DNA of 13,367 nucleotides, taken from IMG/VR virus record IMGVR_UViG_2713896773_000002, positions 1 to 13,367 of that record, one strand, 5' to 3'. Below are positions 7,859 through 13,185 of the stretch, in pieces (positions within the stretch are counted from its first letter, which is position 1; the number at the start of each line of letters is the position of its first letter). The stretch comes from a virus (Duplodnaviria; Heunggongvirae; Uroviricota; Caudoviricetes). The notes under the pieces were generated by a model. It was not told where the DNA came from and did not search any database. It saw only the letters and a program-made list of their open reading frames with translations. The translations under genes and the position numbers were made by a program.

Positions 7859-8323
7859 TTAGAGAATTTGCCAGTCATCAGCCAAGACGTCGGTTTGGCT
7901 TGGTGCCCAAGGCACGCGAGCGCCATTTGGGTATGGCATAGCACCATTGCCCGGCACAGGATAAATTAAACGAATGTACGGCAGGTCCACAGATGGCGAC
8001 TGCTGGACCAGCTCAAGCCACAGGCCCTTGCCGTTCCAGCCTGCGCGGGTGACACGCTTGCCTGATTTCAGGGCTTCGACAGCCAGTCCGAAGCTAAGCC
8101 CCGCCACTGGTCGGTAGGCTTTGTCGAACACATCTTTCGGACTCCAGCTCACATACCCGTTGAAGCGATCGGTGTTTGGCTTTCCGCCATCCAGATACTC
8201 GACGAGATAACCTTCATCACTTCCGTTTTCGTCACTTGGTAACTCCCAACCACGAAAGTCGTTATATGCCAGACGGGTCATCGGGTAAGCATTGATGAGC
8301 TTCACGCCAATATGTTGAGTCAT
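7859..8323 (-). CDS. DUF2829-like (Tad2-like, anti-Thoeris sponge family) domain protein with N-terminal extension
   Basis: 154-aa ORF, ATG at 8323..8321. C-terminal half (…EALKSGKRVTRAGWNGKGLWLEL…VPWAPSQTDVLADDWQIL) matches the motifs I recall for DUF2829. This is a recollection, not a search result. Confidence 0.5.
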   Translation of the reverse strand: MTQHIGVKLINAYPMTRLAYNDFRGWELPSDENGSDEGYLVEYLDGGKPNTDRFNGYVSWSPKDVFDKAYRPVAGLSFGLAVEALKSGKRVTRAGWNGKGLWLELVQQSPSVDLPYIRLIYPVPGNGAMPYPNGARVPWAPSQTDVLADDWQIL

Positions 8324-8343: not shown

Positions 8344-9447
8344 TTATTCAAATGCCGACGCATCCACGCGGCGCAATTCGTCCAGGGTAAGGAACTCCCC
8401 GGCATCATTGAACATCTCCGGCACGGTGATTTTGCCGTCACGCAGCATCTGCGCGCGAGTAACGCCCAGCACCTGCTCCTGCCGCGCGTAAGGCTGCCTC
8501 GCAAGCCATTCGGCATAGCTGGTATGCGCTGGCACCTGTCCGTCCATTGAAGCGCGCGTGGCGTTGCTCAGCTCGCCTGAGGATATTTGCATTTCCTCCC
8601 ACGATTTAGTGATCAGGATTTCGCAGGAGCGGCAGCAAAAGTGGATTTTGCCGGGGCCGCGCAGATACGGAATTGCATGGCCCAGCGGCTTTCCATCGAG
8701 CGAGTAGAGTTTGCGGTCGCGGATGATGCACCACTGGCTGGTGTGGGTGTCCAGAGTCGAAGACCACTGTTTGGCCTTCACGATATCGCTATTGGCTTGT
8801 GCAAACTCCTGGCGCGCCGTTGCTGCCATATGGTTCACCGCGGTGCGGGCAACAACAGCAAGGTCACGACGTGAGGCATTGATAACCCCGTCTTGGCGGT
8901 TAAGTTGCGGCGTGCCGGCGACGCGCTTCACGATCTGCTCGACGGTTTCACCCTGAAGAAATCCGGTACGCACCGCACTGGTGATTTTATCCAGCCGATC
9001 GGATTCAAGCTTTTGGCCCCACTCTTTCAGCAATCTCCCCTGAAAAGGTTGCGCCACCGCAGAGGTGTAGACCTGCTCTGGGGCAATGCTTTGCAGCGGG
9101 ACGTGTTTCAGCACCTGCCGGGGTATAAGGCTGCTGAACAGGTCCATCTGATACCCGGTCTCATAATCCGTGTAACGTGCCAGCTCACGCGCCAGGGAAG
9201 AATTAACCGGTTCATAGGCCTGCTGATTCAGGTCGCGCACGCCAGCCAGCAGCGAAGCTAGGCGGCGGGCGCTGTAGGTGTCGGCACGCTTGCCGTCCAG
9301 CAGCACCAGCAGTTTTGCAGCAAGGTCAGCATCCAGCCTGTTCAGCAACGACACCATGCGCCGGGCGACGCCAGTACCGTAGCGGTTCACATAAAGCCCG
9401 TGCGCTATGGTTTCGTCCTGAAGCCTGTCATTGACGGAACGGGCCAT
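8344..9447 (-). CDS. phage head morphogenesis protein (SPP1 gp7 / Mu F-like minor head protein)
   Basis: 367-aa ORF, ATG at 9447..9445 with RBS GAGGTG. Contains …LDGKPLGHAIPYLRGPGKIHFCCRSCE…, which I recognise as typical of MuF-family proteins. Confidence 0.75.
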   Translation of the reverse strand: MARSVNDRLQDETIAHGLYVNRYGTGVARRMVSLLNRLDADLAAKLLVLLDGKRADTYSARRLASLLAGVRDLNQQAYEPVNSSLARELARYTDYETGYQMDLFSSLIPRQVLKHVPLQSIAPEQVYTSAVAQPFQGRLLKEWGQKLESDRLDKITSAVRTGFLQGETVEQIVKRVAGTPQLNRQDGVINASRRDLAVVARTAVNHMAATARQEFAQANSDIVKAKQWSSTLDTHTSQWCIIRDRKLYSLDGKPLGHAIPYLRGPGKIHFCCRSCEILITKSWEEMQISSGELSNATRASMDGQVPAHTSYAEWLARQPYARQEQVLGVTRAQMLRDGKITVPEMFNDAGEFLTLDELRRVDASAFE

Positions 9448-9459
9448 ATCACACCTCGC

Positions 9460-9975
9460 CTATCGTTCTGGTATTAGCATCGTCACAGCGCGATATGCGG
9501 CGCTTGCTGGCATTCTTGAATAGCCGACACCTTTGCATCTTCCGCATTCTTTCTCAACAACTCTCCCCCACAGCTCTGTTTTTGATATATCAACCGCACG
9601 GCCTGTACCGTGGCAATCTCTGCACCTTGCTCCCGGCGTCGCGGCACTACGGCAATAATCCGCATAAGCGAATGTTGCGAGCACTTGCAGTACCTTTGCC
9701 TTAGTATTTCCTTCAAGCTTTGCCACACCACGGTATTTCCCCGATACCTTGTGTGCAAATTGCATCAGATAGTTGATAGCCTTTTGTTTGTCGTTCTGGC
9801 TGAGTTCATGCTTACCGCAGAATGCAGCCATTCCGAATCCGGCTTGTGATTGCGCCATCCCCATAGCAGCCATCACATCAGTACCGGAAAGAGAGTCAGA
9901 AGCCGTAGCCCGTGGTGAGTCGCTCATCATCGGGCTTTTTGGCGAATGAAATTTAGCTACGCTTTCGAGTCTCAT
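9460..9975 (-). CDS. Q: antitermination protein Q (lambda Q-like), apparently truncated at the 3' end
   Basis: 171-aa ORF that reads like lambda Q over its first ~169 residues, including the zinc-finger region CRDCHGTGR…CGRCKG. It ends …TMLIPER-TAG where I recall lambda Q continuing for ~40 more residues. Start overlaps the ninH stop (ATGA). Confidence 0.7.
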   Translation of the reverse strand: MRLESVAKFHSPKSPMMSDSPRATASDSLSGTDVMAAMGMAQSQAGFGMAAFCGKHELSQNDKQKAINYLMQFAHKVSGKYRGVAKLEGNTKAKVLQVLATFAYADYCRSAATPGARCRDCHGTGRAVDISKTELWGRVVEKECGRCKGVGYSRMPASAAYRAVTMLIPER

Positions 9976-10592: not shown

Positions 10593-10928
10593 TCATACTT
10601 CCCGATCTCCCCATCTCGCTTTCCACTCCAGAGCCAGTCTCGCTTCGTCTGACCACTTAACGCCACGCTCTGTACCGAATGCCTGTATAAGCTCTAATAG
10701 CTCCGCAAATTCGCTTACACGCATCCTGCTGGTTGACTGTCCTATTACCACAAAGCCATTCCCGGCAAGGTTAGGAACAACGTCCTGCTGCTTTAATGCT
10801 GCGGTAAACACACACTTCCAGCTTTCTGCATCCAGCCAGCGACCATGCCATTCAACCTGACGAGAGACGTCACCTAAGCAGGCCCATATCGTCTGCCACG
10901 CGCAGCAGGTGCATTTGATGCTGTGCAA
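10593..10928 (-). pseudogene. ninB: ninB (orf) homolog lacking its 5' end; only TTG start available
   Basis: From [27 protein letters not shown]… onward it is near-identical to lambda NinB as I recall it, but the ~45-50 N-terminal residues are absent. An in-frame TGA lies at 10943..10941, the only start is TTG at 10928, and the 5' end overlaps the helicase 3' end by 55 nt. Confidence 0.55.
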
Positions 10929-12241
10929 ATCTGTCTGGCTTCATCCTGGTCACATGCAACAAAGTGTCCGTTACAGAACCGCTGGTAAACCGTACCAAGC
11001 GAGCCAAAACGGTTTTTCGTCACAATGATTTCAGCAAATGGCGCGGCGCTACTGTTCTCGTCATATACAGCTTCCCGATAGAGCATGATGATTGAGTCTG
11101 CGTCCTGTTCAATGCTTCCTGAATCACGCAAATCTGCGTTTGTCGGGCGTTTGTTTGGTCGCTTCTCAACATCGCGCGAAAGCTGACTCAGGGAGATAAC
11201 AGGCGTTTTCAGGTCTTTCGCCATCGCCTTCAGGCTTCCTGAGATATGAGCAATTGCGAGGTCGTTGCGGTCTGCTTTCGGCTTCTCAATCAGGCCAAGA
11301 TAATCCGCCATGATGAGTGACAGGTTTGGATTTTCCTGTTTGTGCCGTTCTGCGATTGAGCGTATTTCTTCGACCGATAACCGCGAGGCATCGACTACCC
11401 ATACATCCAAATCTGCAAGCTGACTCATGCCGTTAGCAACGCGCGCCCAGCCCTCGTCATCCATCGATGCAGGATTTCGCAGCACGCTAACCGACATCCT
11501 CCCGGCGTTGGCAATGCTTCGCTCTGCAATCTGCAATGCGCTCATTTCCATTGAGAAAATCAATACTCCGCGCCGGACGTCAGAACCAGGAATAACGCGG
11601 CTTGCAACGCCTTCGGCAATCTTCAGCGCCAGTTCGGTTTTCCCCATACCAGGACGAGCAGCGATTATCACCAGGTCTTCCGCGTTCATCCCTCCGGTGA
11701 TGGCATCAAGTTCTTCGATTCCGGTCTTCAGGGTATCTGACTCTTCTCCGTTCCTCAGACGCCTGTCAAGCGTGTCAGTGTAGTCAGTAATGATTTCCCC
11801 TAACCGTACAGGTTTAACCTCGTCACGGGGCTTTCTGATGGCTGAGAGACGCTTTACAAGCTCGTCCATCGCCTGACTCGATGTATCGATGGTTCCGCTC
11901 TGAATTGGTTCACGCATTTCATCCATGATTTCCAGCACCAGACGGCGGTGATAGTTATCCGCGACCATTCCGGCATATCCCTTCAGGTTTGCGGCACTCG
12001 GGCAGTTCTTACTGGTCATCAGGATTGACGTGAAATGCTCCTCTCCGCACGCCTCGGCAACCATCAGCGCGTCGATTAGGTTTCTGTTTCTCGCCTGCTT
12101 GCGGATAACCTCGAAGGCTTTCCGGTAGAGCGGAATTGAAAACGCTTCCGGCTCCAGCGTTGCCAGAACGTCACTGGCAGTTGGTGTTAATCCACCAATC
12201 AGCAGGCCACCGATAACGCTCGCTTCGATATCCTGTCTCAT
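10874..12241 (-). CDS. replicative DNA helicase (DnaB family; phage P-gene functional analogue)
   Basis: 455-aa ORF with Walker A (…[13 protein letters not shown]…) and typical DnaB-like C-terminal features; start overlaps the stop of the O-like gene (ATGA). Confidence 0.85.
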
Positions 12242-13185
12242 GCTATCCCCCTGTCTGCAAACTTCCCTTCCCGTACTCCCGTTAACGAATCTTCCCTCAG
12301 CAGGTAATCAAAATCTGCCGTCCAGCCAGTGTCGTTGTCTCCGAAGTAAAACGGCTTGGCCTGATGTACAAACGCCCTGACATACGCTCTGAAACCGTCC
12401 ACGTTTGGCGTTTTCAGTTGCGGGATGATTTTCTTCAGGCGGCGTTTGCGTTTCTCGTTGACCGCAACAGCGTGTGGCAGTCTGTCACCGACTTCGGTGT
12501 TGTAGGCGTTCAGGAAGGATTCGTAGTCGATTCGTTCTGCCTTGCGACGTTCATGTTTAACCTGCCCATCGCCTCCCCCATTGGGGGGTAGGGGGGTATT
12601 ATTTATATTCTTGTTAATACCTTCTTGTTCATGATGTGCGGTTGTTTGTGCGGCTTCATGTGCGCTTTCATGTGCGGAATGTACGCTGAAAGCCGCGCCA
12701 TTACTGACTTCATCATGTGCGGCATCATGTGCGGTTGTTTGTGCGGCTTCATGTGCGGGTGAATTGTCCATTTTTTGAGCATATTCATGGTAATTTGTGA
12801 TGGTGATCACACGACCTTTTTGCTTCTCTCCATCAATGGTGATCATCCCCTCTTTCACAAAAACCTGAAGCATCCGCTCAACCTGATCACGGCTTGCCGG
12901 CTTGCCATGCCTGTCGCATAACTGAAGACCTAAATCAGCTGCTGTCACAACCAGTTGACCGGGTTGCAGATGCCATTCATGACCTTTGAAATTCGCTTTG
13001 TATGGCTTTCTGGCGGCATTCAGGAGAAGGTTTTCCCACAGGGTGCGAAGATAAACATCTTTCGCCCATGACTGTTTCAGAATGCTCCGGTACAACGGAA
13101 TGTAACCAGTTTTCTGGTTCTCCATCCTGTTGCTCCTGCGCTCGTGTGCGGCGCTGAAATCGTAGATTTTTGCTGTATTGCTCAT
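12238..13185 (-). CDS. replication initiation protein (lambda O-like) containing an internal iteron array
   Basis: 315-aa ORF, ATG at 13185..13183; N-terminus [10 protein letters not shown]… resembles lambda O (MTNTAKILNF…). The central linker is encoded by the repeated DNA iterons and it sits immediately upstream of the helicase. Confidence 0.7.
12634..12758. repeat. putative replication origin iterons: two clusters of four 8-mers (cATGTGCGG / tTGTGCGG) on a 12-bp period
   Basis: Copies start at 12634, 12646, 12658, 12670 and at 12715, 12727, 12739, 12751. An exact 31-nt direct repeat occurs at 12634..12664 and 12727..12757. AT-rich DNA flanks both sides (12598..12629 and 12761..12800) and a G/C inverted repeat CCCCCA-T-TGGGGG sits at 12575..12587. 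Confidence 0.6.

Follow-up and report, generated by a model that had tools for sequence, protein, structure and literature searches.

A putative replication origin of short direct repeats within the initiator gene of a lambdoid prophage

The locus considered here raises the question of why a phage replication gene carries, inside its own coding sequence, eight copies of one short motif at a regular spacing. The window, by which we mean the whole analysed stretch of 13,367 nucleotides, contains on its minus strand an O-like replication initiator gene of 315 aa (12238-13185, defined by its ORF, translation and Pfam match), and the repeats fall within its linker-coding part. A first-pass annotation had read them as a lambda-style origin. 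Every part of this reading that can be tested on sequence holds, and with a probability of about 0.85 we consider the array to be the vegetative replication origin of a lambdoid prophage with a P22/HK97-type module. An origin placed within the initiator gene is almost certainly what we see; the arrangement is well known, and the form found here, in which the repeats are short and all point one way, has been little described.

The repeat array and its initiator gene

The pattern WTGTGCGS has exactly eight matches in the window, all on the plus strand (starts at 12634, 12646, 12658, 12670 and 12715, 12727, 12739, 12751), and the coding strand reads CCGCACAW; six copies are ATGTGCGG/C and two are TTGTGCGG. 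No inverted copy of the pattern occurs in the 13.4-kb window. The starts follow each other at 12, 12 and 12 bp in either block with 45 bp between the blocks, all eight 8-mers lying where the first-pass annotation had placed them, and the exact 31-nt direct repeat which it had reported is also there (12634-12664 identical to 12727-12757). Read along the coding strand, block I (12715-12758, minus strand) consists of four CCGCACAW cores with a 12-bp period at 12758-12751, 12746-12739, 12734-12727 and 12722-12715, and block II (12634-12677, minus strand) of four SCGCACAW cores with the same period at 12677-12670, 12665-12658, 12653-12646 and 12641-12634; both blocks are defined by the motif matches and by relatives. 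The central spacer (12678-12714, minus strand), recognised by a free gap search in relatives, sets the 45-bp start-to-start gap and holds in its centre the element AGTAATGGCGCGGCT (12691-12705, coding strand), which is conserved in relatives and in phage L.

In a motif-agnostic test, the window has eight same-strand copies (at most one mismatch) inside 130 nt, and none of 200 dinucleotide shuffles reaches this number (mean 3.5, sd 0.7, maximum 7). On a 12-nt lattice the window has four copies versus a mean of 2.1 and a maximum of 3 in 200 dinucleotide shuffles. Iterons of about 18-20 bp with an internal dyad, as in lambda and P22, are absent, and the cores are 8 bp long, on one strand and repeated every 12 bp. 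Two candidate refinements were dropped: 12-mer pairs acting as 24-bp dimer sites, because the blocks of most relatives contain three copies each, and a ninth degenerate copy, GCGTACAT, located 9 bp upstream of block II, because it is not kept in relatives. The DnaA box TTWTNCACA has no match in the window, the sole window match to the IHF consensus (1749-1761) is far from the array, and Rfam gave no match near the array; an explanation by host-factor sites or by RNA was dropped since these three scans were empty nearby.

The initiator matches the Pfam family Phage_rep_O (PF04492) over aa 20-132 (E 3.6e-15, 56.7 bits versus a cut-off of 28.7), and its gene shares 97.9-98.8% identity with the O genes of CUS-3, JEP4, Gally, HF4s and 48 Stx2a-converting phage records. 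The array occupies codons 143-186 of the 315-aa ORF, after the end of the Pfam domain (aa 132) and before the onset of the C-terminal homology (about aa 190). From Pfam, AlphaFold2 and Foldseek, the N-terminal part (aa 20-132; 12790-13128, minus strand) is predicted to be a winged-helix DNA-binding domain. The AlphaFold2 model, which is of moderate confidence (mean pLDDT 70; 70-89 over aa 30-135), has an H-beta-H-H-beta hairpin topology comprising helix 44-58, three short strands, helices 82-88 and 99-111 and a beta hairpin at 115-129. The best Foldseek matches in the PDB are all winged-helix DNA binders (CRP, CodY, the MarR family and RbkR), with weak E values of about 0.01-0.07, and a search of solved structures by sequence with the initiator found no relative. 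In the model, the predicted helix-turn-helix (HTH) helices correspond to aa 82-88 (12922-12942, minus strand) and aa 99-111 (12853-12891, minus strand), so that residues 82 and 100 would open the two HTH helices of the predicted winged helix.

Flanking elements and comparison with known origins

The AT-rich flanks named in the first-pass annotation are evident from base composition. Directly downstream of the iterons, 12597-12632 has 19% GC, which is the lowest value among all 36-nt stretches of the window (54.6% GC as a whole), and on the strength of its composition, repeats and alignment with P22 the region 12597-12633 is a candidate DNA-unwinding element; it holds two TTCTTGTTMAT repeats 14 bp apart. 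The stretch upstream of the array (12760-12795) is the third most AT-rich 36-mer with 28% GC, and it also codes for the conserved end of the N-terminal domain.

Beyond the AT-rich region lies a C/G-tract element (12575-12596, coding for TPLPPNGGG) composed of the inverted repeat CCCCCA-T-TGGGGG, present at 12575-12587 as had been claimed, and of a tandem of two GGGGGGTA units at 12583-12598. This element is conserved in HK97, P22 and the contig L005, and on sequence grounds we count the short G/C inverted repeat among the conserved elements of the putative origin, although its conservation inside the HK97/P22 class could be due to coding. As a hairpin in single-stranded DNA it is no more stable than shuffles (z of about -1 in the window, and likewise in HK97), and we therefore claim a conserved dyad and not a stable hairpin.

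The other C-terminal classes have inverted repeats of different sequences about 45-56 nt past the end of the array, for example TCCCC-TGAA-GGGGA, GTCATCT-GA-AGATGAC and ATCTCTTAC-TG-AAGTAAGAGAT. Most C-terminal classes have arms of at least 5 nt at this offset, a length for which the background frequency per 55 nt is 0.18 (0.057 for arms of at least 6 nt), and compensatory changes are seen on both arms: GAATTC-TGAC-GAATTC, GACATTC-TGAC-GAATGTC and TGATTC-TCAC-GAATCA form one such set, CCCAC-GAA-GTGGG and CCCGC-GAG-GCGGG another. Position-equivalent inverted repeats were noted in loci L119, L121, L106, L111, L100, L095, L117 and L118, and in the Xenorhabdus class no such inverted repeat was found after the array.

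Each lambda iteron has an internal dyad symmetry. The window resembles the lambda origin in that the array lies inside the initiator gene, between an N-terminal DNA-binding and a C-terminal recruiting domain, and in the order of iterons, AT-rich region and inverted repeat along transcription; moreover, its initiator belongs to Phage_rep_O, and relatives of its N-terminus carry lambda-type C-termini and P-type loaders. It differs from lambda in having eight 8-bp cores in one orientation, arranged in two blocks with a 45-bp gap, instead of four sites of about 19-20 bp, and the 12-bp period bears out the earlier remark that these iterons are shorter and tighter than those of lambda. Lambda further uses a P loader and the host DnaB, whereas the window encodes an HK97/P22-type C-terminus and a phage DnaB-type helicase. 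According to the literature, gene O of lambda contains four repeats of about 20 bp, as does gene 18 of P22, whose repeats are different ones, and in both phages the origin function maps to a position equivalent to that of the window array (PMC8022706).

The comparison with lambdoid origins served by DnaB-type helicases, which the first-pass annotation had proposed, leads to P22 and HK97. Both share with the window a homologous C-terminal domain, a CCCCC-N-GGGGG element and a downstream DnaB-type helicase gene, and the AT-rich stretch and the C-tract/G-tract element of the window align with both. This aligned half falls inside the annotated rep_origin of P22 (OQ031658; L002 1403-1547), which is described there as a "bi-directional replication origin similar to phage lambda". 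In contrast, the N-terminal domains of P22 and HK97 have no similarity to that of the window detectable in tblastn, and their repeats are other ones (L002, L006), the P22 sites being of the GGTAAA...TTTACC type and about 20 bp long; no copies of CCGCACAW were found in the origin genes of P22 and HK97. The gp54/gp55 module of HK97 is known as "Eru2" of Stx phages (PMC8044961).

The closest plan is found in phage L, whose gene 18 has six imprecise 11-bp repeats, TGTCCAACGGA, considered "likely the origin" (PMC8022706). In the annotated putative origin (MW013503 rep_origin; L124 3651-3745) we find 3+3 copies with an 11-bp period and a 44-bp gap. Phage L thus shares with the window and its relatives two blocks of three to four short direct repeats, a spacer carrying AGTAATGRCGCGGCT with the central element CC AGT AAT GRC GCG GCT (GAC in L itself), an AT-rich stretch followed by an inverted repeat (9-bp arms in L), a DnaB-like helicase downstream and a distantly homologous initiator (gp18, 22% identity, E 2e-9). 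It differs in the repeat (GTCCAACG at 11 bp versus CCGCACAW at 12 bp), in the gap (44 versus 45 bp) and in the number of copies (3+3 versus 4+4). Since the published putative origin of phage L has the same plan, the idea is not new, and the putative origin of the window would be a further member of a described kind. The phage L paper notes the six repeats and not the two-block plan or the spacer (PMC8022706).

The papers searched yielded no mention of the two-block rule, the constant gap, the central spacer element or the covariation presented below. The searchable literature yielded no experiment on this type of origin, papers on CUS-3, HK620, Sf6 and HK97 contained nothing specific on it, and a full-text search for the 8-mer returned just unrelated primer and sequence matches. 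In plasmids, iterons measure about 17-22 bp, are found outside the rep gene and are usually accompanied by DnaA boxes and IHF sites. Plasmid origins of this kind (pSC101, R6K, P1 and F, bound by Rep monomers) resemble the window in their tandem direct repeats, AT-rich neighbour and winged-helix initiator, which for the window is a prediction, and they differ in that its cores are of 8 bp, in-gene and without a DnaA-box or IHF consensus nearby.

The position of the array bears on whether the cores bind the O-like protein for regulation only, through autoregulation, titration or handcuffing in copy control, or exclusion of related phages, with initiation taking place elsewhere. We consider this improbable, as the 13.4-kb window has no further core copy outside the array, for example near promoters, the most AT-rich stretch of the window and the sequence aligned with the P22 origin come right after the array, and the equivalent position in lambda and P22 has origin function (PMC8022706). 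A regulatory role would have precedents in plasmid iterons and in plasmid-borne lambda ITN sequences, which inhibit or titrate (PMC3349717), and binding of the O-like protein is itself supported here indirectly, by codon constraint and covariation.

Constraint on the array and modular structure of the gene

To follow the array in diverged relatives, 36 further loci were taken from one-genome-per-species bacterial assemblies (48-86% N-terminal identity), and each gene was searched freely for 2-5 copies per block and a gap of 24-69 nt. In about 40 diverged relatives (44-86% N-terminal identity), nearly every gene has n+n copies, either 3+3 or 4+4, and the 12-bp period is nearly always combined with a gap of 45 bp from the last copy of block I to the first copy of block II. 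The block-to-block distance changes among relatives (69 or 81 bp) while the 45-bp gap stays constant.

The cores of these relatives fall into six types: A (CCGCACAT, the window and 20 others), B (CCGCGCAT/CCGAGCAT, 9 loci), C (YSCGATRA, 3 loci), D (GAGGTAAC, 2 loci), E (GWCGAR, 1 locus) and F (CCGATACA, 1 locus). The peptides encoded by the array are unrelated between the core groups (AH-rich, PDEPCDKPSD, EVTKQVSNEV and VEGSDEPPVE). The central spacer element is kept in all six types and in phage L, even in comparisons where the N-terminal domains share just 22-50% identity, and its Ala codon is nearly always GCG. The element, AGTAATGGCGCGGCT, was matched to no known consensus; it could be bound by another factor or act in phasing.

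Codon choice was counted in 29 genes of types A and B. Ahead of the Ala-His pair stands a codon for Pro, Ala, Ser, Gly, Thr or Cys, which ends in C in all 184 cases. In the core, Ala is encoded by GCA in 127 and by GCG in 41 cases and never by GCC or GCT, which together make up 61% of the Ala codons elsewhere in the same genes, and the His codon is CAT rather than CAC at a ratio of 155 : 3, compared with 101 : 59 elsewhere in these genes; the site-finding pattern pre-filters some core positions, but L103 is the only locus in which the lattice of the array has a gap, so the codon result is not produced by the pre-filter. These fixed choices bear out the earlier suggestion that the array forces a His/Ala/Glu/Thr linker upon the protein.

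Polymorphism points the same way as codon choice. Matches of the N-terminal alignment to viral contigs are only 99-100% identical copies and were used for polymorphism, not for divergence. Among 65 distinct close alleles, core positions 2-7 are variable at 6 of 48 sites, all with rare alleles, and inter-core and spacer positions at 34 of 65 sites (Fisher P = 1e-5 versus the cores). Change is thus tolerated in the linker peptide but not in the cores, which supports, as far as sequence comparison can tell, selection on the array at the level of nucleotides and not of residues.

That the repeats are only a low-complexity His/Ala-rich protein linker made by slippage, perhaps metal-binding, and without any function in DNA, is very improbable in the light of these data. 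The array does lie in the inter-domain linker and codes for an AH-rich repeat, and among close alleles it is the most polymorphic part of the gene. However, the residue before the core varies (six amino acids) under constant nucleotides, the synonymous choices (GCA/GCG, CAT) are fixed, and relatives with other core types have quite different peptides free of His (PDEPCDKPSD, EVTKQVSNEV and VEGSDEPPVE), yet keep the 12-bp period and the 45-bp gap. In phage L, the 11-bp period means that the repeat does not even stay in a constant reading frame.

The six core types track the N-terminal sequence of the protein. Types A and B differ in core base 5, which is A in the former and G in the latter, all B copies having G except for one CCGCACTT unit (L107). 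When all N-terminal domains are aligned, type A (21 sequences) and type B (9 sequences) are kept apart without overlap by two columns alone, A82S and D100H. Two type B proteins (L095 and L101) are nearly identical to type A over their first 80 residues and have a B-type HTH segment; these mixed proteins show that the A/B association follows the HTH segment, although this segment is only 100-300 bp from the iterons and co-inheritance could partly reflect linkage. Type B may also be largely one clade.

The initiator is of mosaic build. In tblastn against phage genomes it splits at about aa 190-195: residues 190-315 are 96.8% identical to HK97 gp54 and 59.7% to P22 gp18, and in these two phages this C-terminus is fused to unrelated N-termini with other repeats, followed by DnaB-type helicases. 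The N-terminal part together with the array has 74-76% identity in Klebsiella phage ST16-OXA48phi5.2 and Yersinia phage vB_YenM_29.18, where aa 1-195 and the iterons are joined to a lambda-type C-terminus and then to a P-type gene. The position of the array in the inter-domain linker thus coincides exactly with the mosaic joint, where the N-terminal/iteron module meets the C-terminal, helicase-specific one. This is the classical two-module lambdoid initiator, with the specificity for the origin in the N-terminal and that for the helicase system in the C-terminal part.

A still less probable reading takes the region mainly as a recombination joint (aa 190-195, with different N- and C-terminal halves in relatives, many partial database proteins ending here and units shuffled between blocks among alleles) and the repeats as by-products of repeated illegitimate or homologous exchange, which leaves the 12-bp period, the 45-bp gap, the nucleotide constraint and the covariation of six core types with the HTH unexplained; a joint and an origin are moreover compatible, and their combination is expected for lambdoid O genes.

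Most database proteins related to the N-terminal domain (P0001-P0073) are labelled "partial" (146-240 aa). Many contigs thus stop within the array or shortly past it, probably at points where an assembly broke off because one gene half is common to several prophages. One further entry, L005 (OR850084, "Staphylococcus phage SA 1298 Kay", UNVERIFIED_ORG), is a 2.7-kb wastewater contig with an enterobacterial-type O protein, the HK97-type C-terminus of which is nearly identical to that of the window; its Staphylococcus label is almost certainly wrong.

Possible mechanism and prophage context

Taking the array as the origin, we suggest that the predicted N-terminal winged-helix domain of the O-like protein would bind the CCGCACAW cores. 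The cores repeat in one direction and lack dyad symmetry, so that binding would probably be head-to-tail with one domain per core; the latter is an assumption, since a domain of about 110 aa has little room at a spacing of 12 bp. Four proteins on each block would then form two arrays held 45 bp apart, and the resulting complex may destabilise the adjacent stretch of 19% GC (12597-12633). The C-terminal domain (about aa 196-315, HK97/P22 type in tblastn; 12241-12600, minus strand) would then recruit the phage's own DnaB-type helicase, which is encoded immediately downstream.

This putative partner is a gene of 455 aa (10874-12241, minus strand) identified by Pfam (DnaB_C, E 8.8e-78; DnaB N-terminal domain, E 4.4e-13), and its start codon overlaps the stop codon of the O-like gene (ATGA). 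The genes for RusA and the antiterminator Q come after the helicase, which identifies the region as the early-right operon of a lambdoid prophage.

A wider proposal is that the family represents O-type initiators with a non-lambda origin geometry and a readable recognition code. It would comprise winged helices bound head-to-tail to 8-bp cores every 12 bp (11 in phage L), two filaments of three to four subunits each at a fixed distance of 45 bp (44 bp), a central element which sets this distance and may also be bound by another factor or determine the phase, and residue 100 (Asp/His) reading core base 5 (A/G). Taken jointly, these statements are tentative, and we doubt that all of them will hold together. 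If the code were true, origin specificity and the compatibility of co-resident prophages, such as Stx phages, would be predictable from sequence.

The underlying principle is textbook knowledge, and the interest of the locus lies in a testable origin map for a replication module found widely among enterobacterial prophages, including CUS-3 and the 48 Stx2a-converting phage records. In E. coli O157, the type of replication protein of the Stx2a phage correlates with the Shiga toxin output of the host (PMC4645166), and knowing the cis-acting origin of each type would help to study that link. The relatives also offer a natural series for the co-evolution of initiator and origin specificity, with six core types, a switch of two residues and one base, a spacing rule and a compensated inverted repeat.

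Further along the window, the Q gene (9460-9975, minus strand) directly abuts a gene for a Mu-F-like minor head protein (8344-9447), and no lysis, terminase or portal genes lie in between. In complete E. coli genomes, the matching head block ends at about position 9474 of the window and is preceded by a DUF4055 gene; the joint at 9447-9475 was spanned by no genome among the complete E. coli genomes compared. A deletion may have made the prophage defective, or the joint may be a mosaic one of an unusual kind; in a defective prophage, this copy of the putative origin may never fire.

Among the head genes there is a 154-aa ORF (7859-8323, minus strand) with a Tad2-like (Thoeris anti-defence 2) domain (PF11195, E 4.6e-20), which carries a DUF2829 annotation in E. 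coli genomes. The head-tail gene block also contains a DnaT_2-like ORF (PF20557; 4560-5042) and an ORF with a KilA-N domain (1438-1968), both on the minus strand.
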